Of a stretch of 5,594 bases of DNA, positions 1,470-5,594 are shown one piece after another; the first letter of the stretch is position 1; each line of letters begins with the position of its first letter. Both the position numbers and the translations under genes were made by a program. A model generated the notes under the pieces. That model made no database searches. It was not told the origin of the DNA and saw nothing but the letters and a program-made list of their open reading frames with translations. The stretch is from the IMG/VR virus record IMGVR_UViG_2663762627_000005, positions 1 to 5,594 of that record; one strand, written 5' to 3'. This DNA is from a virus. Its lineage: Duplodnaviria > Heunggongvirae > Uroviricota > Caudoviricetes.

Positions 1470-1528
1470 ATTCTGCCGCGCCAGACACAACAACACGATT
1501 CATTGGCGTTGTGGCAAAAATGACACAA
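1470..1528 (-). promoter_or_regulatory. Psid-like late promoter: TGT-N12-ACA dyad (1511-1528) plus candidate -10 CAGAAT (1475-1470, minus strand)
   Basis: Exact TGTggcaaaaatgacACA at 1511-1528. The dyad centre is about 55-57 bp upstream of the predicted start site and about 80 bp upstream of the sid ATG, the geometry of Ogr/Delta-activated P2/P4 late promoters. Confidence 0.6.
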
Positions 1529-1613
1529 ACAGACCTTAAAACCCGGCTGGCCAGAGAAAGGTCTCAGGAAACCCTTACTCACTGTTTGTTTTTTTACTAA
1601 TAACTATTCACTA

Positions 1614-1708
1614 CTGTTCACCTTAAGAAAAAAGATAAGTAATACAGTTAATTAAAGGGTGAACAGTTGAAGGTCTGACTGTTCACCGTCTGTTCACCAC
1701 TGTTCACC
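1614..1708. repeat. Cluster of five CTGTTCACC repeats (P4 type I iteron core TGTTCACC); crr-like alpha-binding region
   Basis: Direct copies at 1614-1622, 1679-1687, 1690-1698 and 1700-1708 (the last three phased at 11 and 10 bp), plus an inverted copy GGTGAACAG at 1658-1666. The octamer TGTTCACC is the alpha-protein binding iteron of P4 ori and crr. Confidence 0.7.
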
Positions 1709-1790
1709 CTTCTGTTTTTCTCTGCCGATACCTTTAGACTTTATTTCGATTAAAAATCAAAAATATATAACTAAAAGAAATAGAAATTGC

Positions 1791-1844
1791 TGCATTGTAA
1801 TGCAGTGATTTGCATCTGTTTGCCAGCGTTTGCCTTTGTTTGCC
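1791..1844 (+). promoter_or_regulatory. Candidate operator/PLL-region elements: perfect palindrome TGCATTGTAATGCA and three GTTTGCC direct repeats phased at exactly 10 bp
   Basis: Palindrome at 1791-1804. GTTTGCC at 1818-1824, 1828-1834 and 1838-1844. Lies 130-180 bp upstream of the vis/alpA start, with an AT-rich tract (1740-1790) just upstream. Confidence 0.4.
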
Positions 1845-1973
1845 ATAGCGAAAAGTCAATGTTTGTTTCCACGAAAATCTCACATGACCTGAGGAAAAAT
1901 ATAGACATAATAAGGAGCTACCCGAAGCCGGACGGACACGACCGGCACCGTATGGACTTTATGAGGTAGCCCG

Positions 1974-2240
1974 ATGCACACCGCTTTTTCTTCCCCGTCT
2001 TCTGCCCCTGCCGCGCCGCTGATGCCGGTCTCTGACGCCGTTCATGAGCGTTTTATTCGTCTGCCTGAAGTGATGCATTTATGCGGCCTGTCTCGTTCGA
2101 CCATTTATGACCTCATCAGCCGGGAAGCTTTCCCGAAGCAAATCTCCCTCGGCGGTAAAAACGTGGCGTGGGCGCAGTCTGAAATCACCGCATGGATGGC
2201 GGATCGCATTGCCGAACGTAACCGGGGTTATGACGCATGA
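1974..2240 (+). CDS. vis: AlpA/Vis-family small DNA-binding regulator (88 aa), MerR-like HTH
   Basis: ATG at 1974 with GAGG 7 nt upstream. The protein contains [50 protein letters not shown], characteristic of prophage AlpA/Vis/excisionase-like regulators. Same size (88 aa) and position as P4 vis (orf88) as I recall. Confidence 0.85.
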
Positions 2241-2788
2241 TGATGACCGTTCAGCAAACAGCCCCTTTTTCTGGCTTGCTTCTTTTCATCGTTTCCAGGT
2301 ATAGTTTTCCCGCTGCCGCAAAATCGGCAGCCGGGCGTAGGAACCCGAGTTACTTATTGGCGACACCAGACGCGCCATGCGTCTTTTTTTACGTCGTTGC
2401 TCAGGCACACCCATTTTCCGGGCTGTGGTGCTTATACCTTAGCCCCTGTCAGATAATGGTGGTCCGGGCGGGGCAGCCTTCGGGCTGGCCGGTTTCCAAT
2501 AAGGCCGGTATTCCTACCCCCGTTCGGGTCACCACCCATGAGCGTAGGAACTCCGGTGGTGGCAATTACCGCTACTTATTGGAGGTTGCCGCTATGGCTA
2601 CGACCCTCACCCTGCCACACCCGCAGTTTGTCTTTGTGTTTGCCGCCGTTCGTCGCGCAGACCGTAAACCCCGTATCTGTATGCTTCGCACCGTTGCCGG
2701 TGATGAACACGCTGCACGTCTTTCCCTCGTTCGCGATTATGTCCTCTCGTTCGCTGGCCGTCTGCCGGTTGCGGAGGTGTGCGCATGA
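2237..2788 (+). CDS. eta: Eta-like long ORF (183 aa) whose terminal part is kil; starts with three consecutive ATG codons and reads through seqA, the CI-like RNA and seqC
   Basis: About 119 codons stay open across a region that is clearly an RNA regulatory locus, in frame with kil. The start overlaps the vis stop (ATGA) and is followed by ATGATG. This matches the P4 description of eta as a nested ORF beginning upstream of PLE with three possible start codons. Whether it is translated is untested. Confidence 0.45.
2276..2305 (+). promoter_or_regulatory. Sigma70-type promoter, PLE-like: -35 TTGCTT (2276-2281), 18-bp spacer, -10 TATAGT (2300-2305)
   Basis: Good hexamers with correct spacing. 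Placed just upstream of seqA and the CI-like RNA and just inside the eta ORF, as expected for the constitutive early promoter of a P4-type left operon. Confidence 0.55.
2335..2361 (+). promoter_or_regulatory. seqA-like target of the immunity RNA (GTAGGAA ... CTTATTGG)
   Basis: GCGTAGGAACccgagttaCTTATTGG is complementary in two blocks to the seqB segment of the downstream RNA (CCAATAAG ... TTCCTAC at 2496-2517). Confidence 0.65.
2368..2390 (+). terminator. Intrinsic-terminator-like hairpin (AGACGC / gccat loop / GCGTCT) followed by a T7 tract
   Basis: 6-bp stem at 2368-2373 and 2379-2384 with a T run at 2384-2390, immediately downstream of seqA in the leader. Orientation-specific: there is no U-tract on the other strand. 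Confidence 0.4.
2455..2537 (+). ncRNA. cI: CI-like immunity RNA (about 80 nt) carrying seqB; boundaries approximate
   Basis: A terminal helix can form between GGUGGUCCGGGCGGGG (2458-2473) and CCCCCGUUCGGGUCACCACC (2517-2536). Internal hairpin CAGCC-UUCG-GGCUG (2474-2488). The seqB segment CCAATAAGgccggtaTTCCTAC (2496-2517) is complementary to both seqA and seqC. P4 CI RNA is a processed leader RNA of about 79 nt. Confidence 0.6.
2541..2585 (+). promoter_or_regulatory. seqC-like target of the immunity RNA, overlapping the kil Shine-Dalgarno
   Basis: AGCGTAGGAAC (2541-2551) and CTTATTGG (2575-2582) repeat the seqA blocks. The GGAGG SD of kil is at 2581-2585, so CI/seqC pairing would occlude the kil ribosome-binding site. 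Confidence 0.6.
2594..2788 (+). CDS. kil: Kil-like small protein (64 aa), first translated gene downstream of the PLE-like promoter
   Basis: ATG at 2594 with GGAGG 8 nt upstream. 64 codons ([64 protein letters not shown]). P4 kil is 65 aa at the same position. Function inferred from position only. Confidence 0.6.
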
Positions 2789-3012
2789 GACACACCACCA
2801 TTACTGCCCGTGACCTCGAATGCCTTGAACATATGCGCAACGTCGGTCAGCTCGTCAGCGAACTGATGCAGGTGCAGGACTGTGCCACTGTTCGCCGTGA
2901 CCCGGCGCAGCAGTTACAGCTCACCTCCGTGATTTACCTTATGACCGCCCAGCTCGACGGCATGGTCGAACGCTGCAATCAGCACTGGCTGACCGGGGAG
3001 GACAACGTATGA
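2785..3012 (+). CDS. Hypothetical small protein (75 aa from ATG 2785; the track's GTG 2779 start gives 77 aa)
   Basis: GGAGG at 2773-2777 is 7 nt upstream of ATG 2785. The ATG overlaps the kil stop (ATGA). No recognisable motif. Occupies the slot where P4 carries small left-operon genes such as eps. Confidence 0.6.
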
Positions 3013-3329
3013 AACAGCCATTACCGCCCGTATTACGCGCCGCGCTCTATCGCCGTGCAGTGGCCTGTGCCTGGCTGACCCTGTGCGAACGCCAGCACCG
3101 TTACCCGCGCCTCACCCTTGACGCGCTGGAAAGCGCCATTGCTGCCGAGCTGGAGGGCTTCTACCTGCGCCAGCATGGAGAGGAAAAAGGTCGCCAGATT
3201 GCCTGTGCACTGCTCGAAGATTTAATGGAAGCCGGACCACTGAAAGCTGCCCCGTCGCTGTCCTTCCTCGGGCTCGCGGTGATGGATGAACTTTGCGCCC
3301 GCCATATCACCGCACCGGTACTGCACTGA
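3009..3329 (+). CDS. Hypothetical protein (106 aa), translationally coupled to the upstream ORF
   Basis: GGGGAGG at 2995-3001 is 7 nt upstream of ATG 3009. The ATG overlaps the upstream stop (ATGA). The ORF ends 14 nt before the primase start. No recognisable motif. Confidence 0.65.
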
Positions 3330-3343
3330 GGGAGAAAATAACA

Positions 3344-5440
3344 ATGAAAATGAACGTAACGGAAACCGTAAAACAGGCGTGCGGTCACTGGCCGCGTATT
3401 CTCCCGGCGCTGGGTGTGAAGGTGATTAAAAACCGGCATCAGGCCTGTCCGGTGTGCGGCGGCTCTGACCGCTTTCGCTTTGACGATAAAGAGGGGCGCG
3501 GGACGTGGTACTGCAATCAGTGCGGCGCGGGTGACGGGCTTAAGCTGGTCGAAAAGGTGTTCGGTGTAAATCCGTCTGAGGCCGCCCGGAAGGTGAACGC
3601 CGTCACCGGTAATCTGTCGCCGGTTGCCCCGGAAGCGATTGCGGCCGCAGAAGCCGGAACCGATGCCGACCTCCAGGCGGCGGCCGCGCTGGCCGTCAGG
3701 CTCATGGAGAAAACCCGCCCGGCCACCGGCAACGCCTACCTCACCCGCAAGGGTTTCCCCGACCGGGAATGTCTGATGCTCACAGCCATACATAAAACCG
3801 GCGGCGTGACGTTCCGCGCCGGTGATGTGGTTGTCCCGCTGTATGACGATACCGGGGCGCTGGTTAACGTTCAGCTTATTAATGCTGATGGTCTCAAACG
3901 CACCCTGAAAGGCGGTCAGGTCAAAGGGGCATGTCATATCATCGAGGGGCAGAAACAGCCCGGAAAACGCCTGTGGATTGCGGAGGGTTATGCGACCGCG
4001 CTCACCGTGCATCAACTGACCGGCGAAACCGTCATGGTGGCGCTGTCCTCCGTGAACCTCCTTTCTCTGGCGAGCCTTGCCCGTCAGAAGTCCCCGGCCT
4101 GTCAGATTGTCCTCGCCGCCGACCGTGACCTTAACGGCGACGGCCAGAACAAAGCCGCAGCGGCCGCAGGAGCCTGCGAGGGCATTGTTGCCCTGCCACC
4201 GGTGTTCGGTGACTGGAATGATGCGTTTATAGAAAAAGGTGAGGAAGCCACGCGGAAAGCCATTCATAACGCCATCCGGCCACCGGCACAAAGTCCGTTC
4301 GACACCATGAGCGAGGCGGAATTTACCGCCATGAGCGCCAGCGACAAGGCGATGCGGGTGCATGAGCATTACGGCGAAGCGCTGGCTGTGGACGCGAACG
4401 GCCAGCTTCTGTCCCGCTATGAAAACGGCATCTGGAAAAATATCCCTGCCGCCACTTTTTCACGAAATGTTGCTGATTTATTCCGGCGCGTGCGTGCCCC
4501 GTTCTCGTCGGGGAGAATCACCTCAGTGGTGGAGACGCTGAAGCTGATTATTCCTCAGCAGGAGGCACCGGCGCGCCGTCTGATTGGTTTTCGCAACGGG
4601 GTACTTGATACCCAAAGCGGCCTGTTCAGCCCGCACAGTAAATCACACTGGCTGCGCACGCTGTGCGACGTGGATTTTACCCCGCCGGTGGAAGGGGAAA
4701 CGCTGGAGACCCACGCGCCAAACTTCTGGCGCTGGCTCGACCGTGCCGCCGGTGGCAGACCGGAAAAACGCGACGTGATACTTGCCGCGCTGTTTATGGT
4801 GCTGGCGAACCGCTACGACTGGCAGCTCTTTCTCGAAGTCACCGGTCCCGGCGGAAGCGGTAAAAGTATTCTCGCCGAAATCGCGACCCTGCTCGCCGGA
4901 GAGGATAACGCCACGTCAGCCGATATCGACACACTGGAAGACCCGCGCAAGCGCGCATCCCTGACTGGTTTCTCGCTAATCCGTCTGCCTGACCAGGAAA
5001 AATGGAGCGGTGACGGGGCAGGACTCAAAGCCATCACCGGCGGCGATGCGGTCTCAGTTGACCCGAAATACCAGAACCCGTACTCAACACATATTCCGGC
5101 GGTGATTCTGGCCGTGAACAATAACCCGATGCGCTTCACTGACCGCAGCGGCGGTGTGTCACGCCGCCGGGTGATTATTCATTTCCCGGAGCAGATTGCC
5201 CCGGAGGAACGCGACCCGCAGCTCAGGGATAAAATTGCGCGCGAGCTGGCCGTTATCGTGCGCCAGCTTATGCAGAAATTCAGCGACCCGATGGCAGCGC
5301 GCACTCTGCTCCAGTCGCAGCAGAACTCCGATGAAGCGCTCAGCATCAAGCGTGATGCTGACCCGACGTTTGATTTTTGTGGCTATCTGGAAATGCTGCC
5401 GCAGACCAACGGGATGTTGGTAATGGTGCCAACTTACTGA
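3344..5440 (+). CDS. alpha: P4 alpha-type primase-helicase, C-terminus apparently replaced by IS1-derived codons (native codons end near 5418)
   Basis: Start ATG 3344 (MKMNVTETV...) with GAGGGAG upstream; the track's earlier ATG 3293 lies inside the preceding gene. Zinc-ribbon CPVCGG...WYCNQCG, primase EGYATA motif, TOPRIM-like AADRDLNGDG, and Walker A GPGGSGKS (about 4844-4867). The last 7 codons and the stop (5420-5440) lie inside the IS1 terminal inverted repeat. 699 aa versus about 777 aa for P4 alpha. Confidence 0.88.
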   Translation: MKMNVTETVKQACGHWPRILPALGVKVIKNRHQACPVCGGSDRFRFDDKEGRGTWYCNQCGAGDGLKLVEKVFGVNPSEAARKVNAVTGNLSPVAPEAIAAAEAGTDADLQAAAALAVRLMEKTRPATGNAYLTRKGFPDRECLMLTAIHKTGGVTFRAGDVVVPLYDDTGALVNVQLINADGLKRTLKGGQVKGACHIIEGQKQPGKRLWIAEGYATALTVHQLTGETVMVALSSVNLLSLASLARQKSPACQIVLAADRDLNGDGQNKAAAAAGACEGIVALPPVFGDWNDAFIEKGEEATRKAIHNAIRPPAQSPFDTMSEAEFTAMSASDKAMRVHEHYGEALAVDANGQLLSRYENGIWKNIPAATFSRNVADLFRRVRAPFSSGRITSVVETLKLIIPQQEAPARRLIGFRNGVLDTQSGLFSPHSKSHWLRTLCDVDFTPPVEGETLETHAPNFWRWLDRAAGGRPEKRDVILAALFMVLANRYDWQLFLEVTGPGGSGKSILAEIATLLAGEDNATSADIDTLEDPRKRASLTGFSLIRLPDQEKWSGDGAGLKAITGGDAVSVDPKYQNPYSTHIPAVILAVNNNPMRFTDRSGGVSRRRVIIHFPEQIAPEERDPQLRDKIARELAVIVRQLMQKFSDPMAARTLLQSQQNSDEALSIKRDADPTFDFCGYLEMLPQTNGMLVMVPTY

Positions 5441-5594
5441 TTTAGTGTATCATGGTGTTTTTGAGGTGCTCCCGTGGCTTCCATCTCCATCAGTTGTCCC
5501 TCCTGCTCAGCTACTGAAGGCGTGGTGCGTAACGGTAAAAGTACTGCCGGACATCAGCGCTATCTCTGCTCTCACTGCCGTAAAACATGGCAAC
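5419..5594 (+). mobile_element. IS1 insertion sequence, left end (terminal inverted repeat GGTAATGGTGCCAACTTACTGAT) and start of insA; continues beyond the window
   Basis: 5419-5441 matches the IS1 terminal inverted repeat apart from a few variant positions, followed by the characteristic TTTAGTGTAT...GGTGTTTTTGAGGTGCTCC leader and insA. Confidence 0.9.
5474..5594 (+). CDS. insA: IS1 InsA (transposition repressor / N-terminal transposase part), 5' portion only
   Basis: GTG start at 5474. Translation (V/M)[39 protein letters not shown] matches the InsA N-terminus (zinc-finger CPSC...CSHC). ORF runs off the right edge. Confidence 0.9.

Follow-up and report, generated by a model that had tools for sequence, protein, structure and literature searches.

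Organization of the locus

The window, meaning the whole 5,594-nucleotide stretch of DNA that was analysed, contains the immunity and early-operon region of an E. coli satellite prophage of the P4 type, which is integrated adjacent to ssrA. It was syntenic with P4 at about 79% nucleotide identity. The P4-like core set (integrase, psu, delta, sid, alpA/vis, and the alpha primase-helicase) was present in P4 order, with alpha incomplete. PGAP annotation of a 99.6%-identical E. coli locus showed int, psu, ogr/Delta-like, sid, an HTH regulator (vis), an Icd-like CDS, DUF5375, and primase. IS1 interrupts the alpha gene at 5419; the satellite is therefore probably defective, and with alpha cut in this way the eta/kil circuit may by now be irrelevant in the present host. 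The features of the region, all on the + strand, are as follows.

1884..1911, +, candidate late promoter, PLL-like, upstream of vis (ATGACC-16-CATAAT, 9/12 matches)
1974..2240, +, vis, AlpA-family gene, 88 aa (ORF list; Pfam Phage_AlpA, E = 3e-20; collinear with P4 ORF88)
2237..2788, +, 183-codon eta ORF, its 3' part being the in-frame nested kil (ORF list; P4 homologue; RefSeq)
2237..2245, +, triple start ATGATGATG (read directly in the sequence)
2276..2305, +, internal constitutive promoter, PLE-like (-35 TTGCTT at 2276-2281, -10 TATAGT at 2300-2305; eta codons 14-23)
2299-2351, +, c4-a1b1 (Rfam, 50.1 bits)
2312..2390, +, IsrK-like leader (Rfam isrK at 2312-2389, 75.9 bits, threshold 50)
2337-2343, +, target box b GTAGGAA, inside the IsrK-like leader, complementary to CI
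2353-2360, +, seqA CUUAUUGG, complementary to CI 2496-2503
2368-2384, +, stem of an intrinsic terminator, T run to 2390 (terminator scan)
2420..2445, +, hairpin directly upstream of the CI RNA (fold)
2452..2539, +, CI, C4-family antisense immunity RNA (Rfam C4, 83.4 bits, threshold 45, E = 6e-16)
2490-2503, +, seqB, the CI loop, pairing with seqC
2511-2517, +, complement of box b (UUCCUAC), inside CI
2544-2550, +, second copy of box b, in the downstream target region 2544..2588
2575-2588, +, seqC, 14-nt complementarity to CI 2490-2503, covering the kil SD GGAGG (2581-2585)
2594..2788, +, kil, 64 codons, Icd-like (NCBIfam phage_ICD_like, E = 3e-22)
2785-3012, +, orf75 (ATGA overlap at 2785; PHROG 10110; CDS also called by PGAP)
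3009-3329, +, cnr-like DUF5375 gene (ATGA at 3009; Pfam DUF5375, E = 5e-65; PGAP CDS)

The sequence-only reading had described a 183-codon ORF that begins at ATGATGATG across the vis stop, runs through seqA, a terminator-like hairpin, a CI-like RNA, and seqC, and ends as a 64-aa kil ORF with a strong SD of its own. Each part of this description was borne out. The ORF list contains the frame with an ATG start, the Rfam matches, terminator scan, and pairing place the RNA elements inside it, and the kil ATG (2594) follows its GGAGG by 8 nt, with a product that matches phage_ICD_like and aligns with P4 Kil. The internal promoter also lies within the ORF, beside the seqA/IsrK-like leader, the terminator, the C4/CI RNA, and seqC. 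Because it matches eta/kil of P4, the ORF is the orthologue of these nested genes, which makes it already known and not a discovery; it is annotated in RefSeq as WP_032147457.1. Genetic work on P4 in 1999 reportedly established the nested frame over the CI RNA, and in that study, by Forti et al., nonsense mutations in eta are said to have caused premature termination. The locus has little weight as a discovery, since the satellite prophage is a common one in E. coli and this orthologue is already annotated.

The first ATG of ATGATGATG shares an ATGA with the TGA stop of the 88-aa AlpA/vis ORF (1974-2240), which suggests translational coupling. No clear SD for eta was found in the region before 2237, and eta initiation would therefore depend on coupling to vis. 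The internal promoter was missed by a simple promoter scan, and its -35 matches at 3 of 6 positions only; it was assigned because its -10 (2300-2305) aligns with the 'consensus -10' feature of P4 record X02534 (2367-2372). The Rfam isrK model starts at 2312, consistent with a transcription start from this promoter. As the eta start precedes the internal promoter, full-length eta requires a promoter further upstream. The site at 1884-1911, which precedes the internal promoter by about 400 nt, was the sole sigma-70-like site in 1500-3400, with a score no better than shuffles. Its position agrees with that of P4 PLL, and its assignment as a PLL-like late promoter is tentative.

All three RNA matches, including those to C4 antisense RNA (RF01695) and isrK (RF01394), exceeded the Rfam gathering scores. 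The CI structure contained 28 consensus pairs, with all cells paired in 47 unique relatives, and double compensatory changes were observed at 7 pairs, so that RNA-level selection on CI is evident. The target boxes, seqA, seqB, and seqC covaried among relatives, giving at least 9 box types. The hairpin at 2420-2445 differed in sequence among relatives and kept its self-complementarity in the alignment; in one relative (L090), a 14-nt deletion removes its apex. A role of this hairpin in CI processing is a guess.

Conservation of the frame and of the encoded peptide

The chance of such an open frame had been put at 0.3%. This value holds only for equal base frequencies and was too low by about tenfold. 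With the base composition of the region itself the chance was 1.8%, and the eta frame was open in 2.7% of 20,000 dinucleotide-preserving shuffles, with any + frame open in 7.8%. The open frame in the single sequence is thus only weakly significant. Given the shuffle probability of 2.7%, we rejected single-sequence statistics as sufficient evidence, and the significance rests on the relatives.

Relatives were gathered with Kil alone as the query, giving 105 related loci; a Solibacteraceae locus (L026) at 30% identity was dropped as a spurious Kil match. Preservation of the frame across relatives, a check proposed in the sequence-only reading, was found in 102 of the 105 loci (89 unique sequences); these loci are phylogenetically related and were selected by Kil similarity, so the counts are not independent events. 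Frame-disrupting indels, named in the same reading as the refuting observation, occurred in 3 loci only. Each of these indels also damages an RNA element, and each broken locus has a close relative with the frame intact.

The length variation kept to one register. The -35 box and the kil ATG were 320, 323, 326, 329, or 368 nt apart, and the spacer was 64, 67, 70, or 109 nt long. Two compensated indel pairs were observed, −1 with −2 (18 sequences) and +1 with −1 (4 sequences), and no uncompensated indel was present among the 84 parsed sequences. In one of the loci (L024) a landmark-pattern artefact affected two adjacent segments and left their summed length unaffected. Among distinct triplet variants, stops made up 0 of 669 in the eta frame, compared with 56 of 1313 out of frame (Fisher p = 6e-11), and the other two frames contained 41 polymorphic stop columns versus none in the eta frame. 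The eta frame remained open over at least 9 x 5 covarying immunity-box types. The start overlapped the upstream stop in 96 of 102 relatives, and elements lacking vis showed a GAGG SD with ATG or GTG at the same place.

The peptide gave a different result. Codon-level conservation of 2237-2593, a further check suggested with the original observation, was confirmed for the frame and not for the protein. Upstream of kil, dN/dS was 0.82 in frame versus 0.84 and 0.84 out of frame, showing no peptide constraint, although RNA constraints could mask weak protein-level selection in these first 119 codons. Nucleotide diversity at codon positions 1, 2, and 3 was 0.231, 0.233, and 0.227, respectively. In kil the corresponding diversities were 0.056, 0.059, and 0.255, and dN/dS was 0.15 in frame versus 2.5 and 1.9 out of frame, a low value that is partly due to the choice of relatives by Kil similarity. 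Absence of periodicity as an artefact of the protein-guided codon alignment or of the compensated frameshift was rejected, as a gap-free recount on 17 same-register sequences gave the same result: variable sites were distributed 29/34/29 by codon position upstream of kil (p = 0.76, no periodicity) and 9/11/44 in kil (p = 1e-8). Kil is a conventionally constrained protein, and the sole part of eta under protein-level selection. In P4, excess Kil is lethal or stops cell division; the Icd-like homology and the purifying selection are what the present gene shows in this regard.

Further observations concern the upstream peptide. The conserved 3' stem of CI was read in another codon phase in 18 of 89 sequences. 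The invariant 'residues' of Eta were invariant at all three codon positions and coincided with RNA stems. Pfam Phage_ASH (PF10554) matched residues 22-131 with 109.5 bits (threshold 26, E = 1e-31); the matched residues are the translated RNA module, with dN/dS equal to the out-of-frame controls. An AlphaFold model of Eta, built from a shallow alignment of 34 sequences, gave a mean pLDDT of 37.6 and does not discriminate. With stops avoided, the frame kept, and the peptide unconstrained, selection on the first 119 codons appears to maintain translatability (the open frame and its start) and not a protein domain. Such selection agrees with the P4 model, where termination is prevented by ribosomes that move along transcripts from the late promoter.

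P4 and related immunity modules

The passages of PMC10111431 that deal with P4 describe, after Forti et al. (1999), a constitutive promoter inside eta, Kil as a truncated Eta, and a translation of eta that prevents termination. According to the same passages, only transcripts from the late promoter upstream give full-length Eta, whose translation is coupled to that of the alpA homologue (PMC10111431). The window shares with P4 the gene order of vis, eta(kil), and then cnr and alpha. In P4 the frame is likewise open from an MMM triple-ATG start overlapping the ORF88/vis stop, and its 199 codons end in Kil. The internal -10 TATAGT, the order in which seqA, the terminator, CI, and seqC follow each other within the frame, and the location of the kil SD inside seqC are also the same. 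Kil was similar in alignment, with identities of 65-98% for the Kil of genome relatives.

The two loci differed in several respects. The ORF has 183 codons here, compared with 199 in P4, the shortening being due to a 45-nt difference in the spacer ahead of CI. The immunity boxes are UUCACAGG and GUGAGAA in P4 and CUUAUUGG and GUAGGAA here. P4 epsilon and orf151 are replaced here by a 75-aa ORF, the Delta-like protein has 81 aa compared with 166, and alpha is cut by IS1 here. The fit to the P4 eta model that had been suggested from the sequence is supported by this collinear locus with the same frame open in P4; the anti-termination itself is inferred from P4.

A P4-type eta/kil system that switches between lysogenic and late states, with selection on translatability alone upstream of kil, is in our judgement the probable overall explanation. 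Both states are modelled on P4. In the lysogenic state, transcripts from the internal promoter (-10 at 2300-2305) would lack the eta start; they would give the IsrK-like leader, and their processing would release the CI RNA. The CI loop would pair with seqA and with seqC, which contains the kil SD. Owing to this pairing kil would not be translated, and the untranslated leader would be terminated ahead of the replication genes. In the late or derepressed state, transcripts from a promoter upstream of vis would carry vis. Ribosomes ending vis would restart at the ATGA and translate eta through the hairpins, the terminator, CI, and seqC. Their transit would block the terminator and CI-target structures and shield the RNA from Rho, and transcription would proceed into orf75, cnr, and alpha, genes connected through additional ATGA overlaps.

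In the immI region of P1 and P7, the c4 antisense RNA acts on the a1/b1 and a2/b2 targets and controls icd-ant. The window showed the same Rfam C4 and c4-a1b1 matches, with two-box targets upstream and downstream of the RNA. In both, an Icd-like gene has its RBS overlapped by the downstream target; here that gene is kil, whose product matches phage_ICD_like. To our knowledge, P1 has no long ORF that reads through c4 from an upstream promoter. The linear plasmid-prophage PY54 carries the same two RNA families without an open frame, and in phiKO2 the frame was open for 103 codons and not fused to icd.

The isrK family, which corresponds to the leader at 2312-2389 here, is also found in the IsrK-orf45-anrP region of Gifsy-1 in Salmonella. 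IsrK is a structural homologue of the P4 seqA RNA, and in Gifsy-1 it is followed by the C4-like RNA STnc1160 and then by an antirepressor gene (PMC4825925). The equivalences of seqA with IsrK and of CI with C4 are given in PMC4825925 and PMC3632133. Gifsy-1 differs in that IsrK activates translation of orf45 and anrP in trans, and a read-through ORF from an upstream promoter is not described there (PMC4825925). Genes of Ant/Bro type in lambdoid (Stx) phages and PICIs have also been reported to contain IsrK/C4 modules (PMC10111431). When viral contigs were scanned for the DNA pattern, 52 unique lambdoid modules were obtained, 51 of them open in the same codon phase as here. They showed an internal 'MAT...' start after a seqC-like SD, and codon periodicity was again absent. 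Unlike the window, the in-frame downstream protein was antirepressor-like, with 200-750 codons, and not Kil, and the modules lay in the early right operon with no vis ahead.

Reading of the codons upstream of kil

Eta could be a true two-domain protein, in which residues 1-119 form a functional, regulatory 'Ash' domain of the Bro network fused to Kil. The strong Phage_ASH match, further matches to PHROGs 6928, 995, 821, and 3960, the presence of the segment in 212 cluster representatives (proteins of 50-644 aa), the handling of eta as a Bro-network gene in PMC10111431, and the common phase of 51 of the 52 lambdoid-type modules all speak for such a protein. We consider it unlikely, as codon periodicity was absent and dN/dS equalled that of the out-of-frame controls. 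The invariance at three codon positions on RNA stems, the change of the CI 3' stem peptide by compensated frameshift in 20% of unique sequences, and the free change of the peptide by the immunity boxes also argue against a domain, as does, weakly, a pLDDT of 26-49 over residues 1-119. The Pfam seed itself is the 137-aa 'put. ash' or 'cI gene product' ORF of old P4 records, and immunity is now attributed to the CI RNA (PMC10111431, PMC4825925).

In another explanation the frame is open mainly so that ribosomes stop late transcripts from folding or being processed into CI, or from binding it, with anti-termination secondary; immunity would then fall once the satellite turns lytic. The ORF covers the entire CI precursor together with the hairpin just upstream, and selection on translatability and not on the product makes this explanation compatible with all comparative data. 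The data do not distinguish it from anti-termination, with which it could coexist; the evidence published for P4, in those passages of PMC10111431 that treat it, concerns termination, and as the main purpose of the frame we regard CI interference as very unlikely.

That kil alone is translated, with the 119 codons open by chance or by hitch-hiking on a conserved G+C-rich RNA and the ORF simply extended upstream by gene callers, is hardly credible. In its favour, the single-sequence chance is 2-3% (7.8% for any + frame), the C4 core has a second open phase both in the window and in 32 of 52 lambdoid modules, peptide-level selection was undetectable, and PY54 lacks the open frame. It is contradicted by the deficit of in-frame stops and of polymorphic stop columns, the restriction of length changes to multiples of 3 or compensated pairs, the retention of a start codon at one position in either upstream context, and the premature termination reported for P4 eta nonsense mutants. 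The last point is consistent with the account in PMC10111431.

On balance we lean, by a little, towards reading the 119 codons of eta upstream of kil as a 'ribosome track', an IsrK/C4 module kept translatable in one phase and not a domain. It seems somewhat likelier true than false that the same holds for most of Phage_ASH and for the matching 'transcriptional repressor/regulator' PHROGs, and we would give a slight preference to the view that read-through translation from an upstream promoter overrides the RNA immunity module. If so, translation-override would be general to C4-type immunity modules and not a peculiarity of P4. Pfam Phage_ASH probably models, in large part, translated RNA. There is a probable annotation problem, in that Phage_ASH, several PHROGs, and the RefSeq name of P4p10 ('transcriptional repressor') would describe translated RNA; these names go back to a time when cI/ash was taken for a protein. 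A frame can be kept purely for translation, with its sequence set by RNA structures and diversifying immunity boxes, and in-phase read-through may be common among the C4-type modules of lambdoid phages.

The eta/kil reading frame and its RNA elements

The 183-codon ORF at 2237-2788 (+), named eta/kil in the sequence-only reading, is real. Its start, ATGATGATG, and the TGA of the AlpA-family gene vis (1974-2240) overlap as ATGA; orf75, cnr and alpha are chained by two more such overlaps, at 2785 and 3009.

Features inside eta
2299-2351, c4-a1b1, Rfam match above the gathering score
2312-2389, isrK, Rfam match above the gathering score
2368-2384, intrinsic-terminator-like hairpin, followed by a T run
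2452-2539, C4, Rfam match above the gathering score
2594-2788, kil, 64 codons, matching NCBIfam phage_ICD_like

The loop of the C4-family immunity RNA (CI), at 2490-2503, was complementary to 2575-2588, which takes in the kil Shine-Dalgarno (SD) sequence GGAGG, and to seqA at 2353-2360. CI 2511-2517 was complementary to a further 7-nt box, GTAGGAA (2337-2343 and 2544-2550), as read straight off the sequence. Directly 5' of the CI RNA, a hairpin at 2420-2445 kept its self-complementarity in relatives despite widely differing sequence, and the spacer at this hairpin is 45 nt longer in phage P4 than in the window. The hairpin may direct processing of the CI 5' end.

The same frame is open in P4 over 199 codons, from an MMM start overlapping the ORF88 stop to the end of Kil. 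The annotated consensus −10 of P4 (TATAGT, 2367-2372, X02534) aligns with 2300-2305 of the window, and this alignment places the constitutive promoter inside eta, downstream of the eta start. A summary of P4 work (PMC10111431) describes Kil as a shortened form of Eta; the full-length protein, whose translation is coupled to that of the alpA homologue, has the upstream late promoter as its only source, and its translation prevents termination. With the equivalences of seqA to the IsrK-like RNA and of CI to C4 (PMC4825925, PMC3632133), the earlier proposal that the locus fits the P4 model is therefore supported, and amounts to the established model applied to an orthologue. P4 work had already established the eta/kil feature, and RefSeq annotates it.

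Maintenance of the frame among relatives

The 0.3% chance first given for the open frame presumed equal base frequencies; it rose to 1.8% with the real composition and to 2.7% with dinucleotide-preserving shuffles. The open frame in a single sequence is therefore suggestive, but not compelling on its own.

Related loci were gathered with the 64-aa Kil alone as the query, which avoided bias to intact eta frames. The relatives comprised 23 genomes from a range of Enterobacterales species (Kil identity 65-98%) and 80 viral contigs, and P4 and the window were added. In one contig, NZ_JBQPOM010000030.1, labelled Vagococcus sp. (a Firmicute), the Kil of the P4-like element is 92% identical; the label is most likely due to assembly contamination or mislabelling.

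Frame preservation, proposed as a check in the sequence-only reading, was found in 102/105 loci (89 unique sequences among the open ones), which were open from a start at the vis stop or close to it as far as the kil stop. From the conserved −35 box to the kil ATG the loci measured 320, 323, 326, 329 or 368 nt, without any change of register, and the spacer before CI, split at landmarks, was 64, 67, 70 or 109 nt. Compensated indel pairs occurred around the CI 3' half (−1 then −2, 18 sequences) and at the T run (+1 then −1, 4 sequences), and none of the 84 parsed sequences had an uncompensated length change. Of the three broken loci, one had lost 1 nt from the CI apical loop, another 1 nt from a G run of the CI stem and the third 14 nt of the pre-CI hairpin, and each has a close relative with an intact frame. 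Polymorphic stop columns numbered 41 in the other two frames and 0 in the eta frame. Among the distinct triplet variants per column, stops made up 0/669 in frame versus 56/1313 out of frame (Fisher p = 6e-11). The start overlapped an upstream stop in 96 of the 102 loci; the few elements whose upstream region differs had a GAGG SD with ATG or GTG in that position. The open frames, in-register lengths, stop avoidance and kept starts together indicate that the eta frame is under selection.

Peptide versus RNA constraint

Codon-level conservation, the other check proposed, was absent upstream of kil. Nucleotide diversity at codon positions 1/2/3 (89 sequences) was 0.231/0.233/0.227 in codons 1-119 and 0.056/0.059/0.255 in kil. 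Nei-Gojobori dN/dS for codons 1-119 was 0.82 in frame versus 0.84 and 0.84 in the shifted frames, and for kil 0.15 versus 2.5 and 1.9. In 17 gap-free, same-register sequences, variable sites by codon position were 29/34/29 upstream of kil (p = 0.76) and 9/11/44 in kil (p = 1e-8). In one type of element (18/89), the phase in which the conserved CI 3' stem is read is shifted, giving SPPSGLPPL versus PTPVRVTTH in the window. Kil is a conventionally constrained protein. Selection on the peptide of codons 1-119 was not detectable in these comparisons, which argue against Eta(1-119) as a functional domain.

All 28 consensus pairs of CI were kept in 47 unique sequences, and seven of these pairs showed double compensatory changes. 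In the box-type survey (window 2330-2586 and loci L003-L106, the relatives), the seqA/seqB/seqC boxes (at least 9 types) and the second box (at least 5 types) covaried at three places, in 42 combinations. By these sequence comparisons, conservation upstream of kil is at the RNA level, and P4-like satellites look to have a modular, diversifying immunity specificity.

The Pfam Phage_ASH match (Eta residues 22-131) spans exactly the RNA module. Its name derives from a 137-aa 'put. ash' / 'cI gene product' ORF in early P4 records. This ORF lies over the P4 CI RNA (4169-4585 in NC_001609, P4p10; 2490-2903 in the second P4 record) and is labelled 'cI gene product', 'transcriptional repressor' or 'put. 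ash gene'. PHROG 6928, 995 and 821 are labelled 'transcriptional repressor/regulator', and their content is largely translated RNA module. These ORF and PHROG labels are probably legacy misannotations. The AlphaFold model of Eta had low confidence only.

By analogy with P4, transcripts from the internal promoter could not encode the eta start; CI would then block the kil ribosome-binding site, and the untranslated leader would be terminated. On transcripts begun upstream of vis, ribosomes coupled from vis would translate the whole leader, preventing the terminator and CI-target structures and barring Rho access, and transcription would thereby reach orf75, cnr and alpha. Our observations cover the architecture, the complementarities, the selection for an open frame and start, and the lack of peptide-level constraint; translatability without peptide constraint is a prediction of the P4 translation model. 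The case is of value for this evidence, from comparison, that selection acts on translatability, and for a caution about the Phage_ASH annotation.

Related modules and the host element

The eta-specific 119 aa matched 212 cluster representatives (50-644 aa) at N-terminal, internal or C-terminal positions. In lambdoid (Stx-type) phages (loci L110, 1096-2193; L111, 1294-2004; and L112-L191), Stx1 and Stx2 phages among them, the IsrK/C4 module lies within a long ORF in the same phase as eta. This ORF runs on into an antirepressor-like protein, beyond an SD that resembles seqC and an internal MAT start. In phiKO2, 103 codons are open in the eta phase; in PY54 this phase is not open. Scanning by pattern for the lambdoid-type CI core gave 52 unique modules. 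In 51/52, ORFs of 203-756 codons kept the eta phase open over no less than 170 nt on the upstream side and 120 nt on the downstream side; the other phases were open in 0/52 and 32/52. Codon periodicity was again absent (variable sites 54/51/51). Because these modules are related to one another, generality of the in-phase open frame across C4-type modules is a lead, not proof.

The 5594-bp window showed 99.6-99.9% identity to chromosomal E. coli P4-like prophages and is collinear with P4 at ~79% nucleotide identity.

Further features of the element
458-703 (−), Delta/Ogr-like zinc-finger protein, 81 aa, a single Ogr-like unit (Delta of P4, 166 aa)
2785-3012, 75-aa ORF, PHROG 10110, function unassigned
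5419-5594, IS1 end (GGTAATGGTGCCAACTTACTGA...), interrupting the alpha primase-helicase gene (start 3344)

PGAP calls the alpha CDS incomplete, with an IS1A transposase alongside, and the match of a 99.9%-identical E. coli copy to the window stops at 5418. Because IS1 cuts alpha at 5419, the element is probably replication-defective. Between sid and vis (1615-1708 and 1817-1845), the P4 'ori type 1' octamer TGTTCACC occurs five times, once inverted, with three spaced GTTTGCC repeats, a location that agrees with that of the replication origin in P4. Between eta and cnr, P4 carries epsilon and orf151, whereas the window has the single 75-aa ORF, which had zero Pfam and NCBIfam matches; no recognisable helper-derepression gene was present at 2785-3012.

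In NZ_OZ546925.1, ssrA adjoins the P4-like element. After the integrase come three cargo genes, then psu, an ogr/Delta-like gene, sid and an HTH regulator; these are followed by a 183-aa 'host cell division inhibitor Icd-like protein', a 75-aa ORF and DUF5375, and next by a primase-helicase that IS1A interrupts. In an E. coli locus (L107, 3202-5114), the middle one of the three cargo genes between integrase and psu encodes a STAS-like domain protein, and the two that flank it encode hypothetical proteins. PMC9122126 describes this position as an anti-phage defence hotspot in P4-like satellites.
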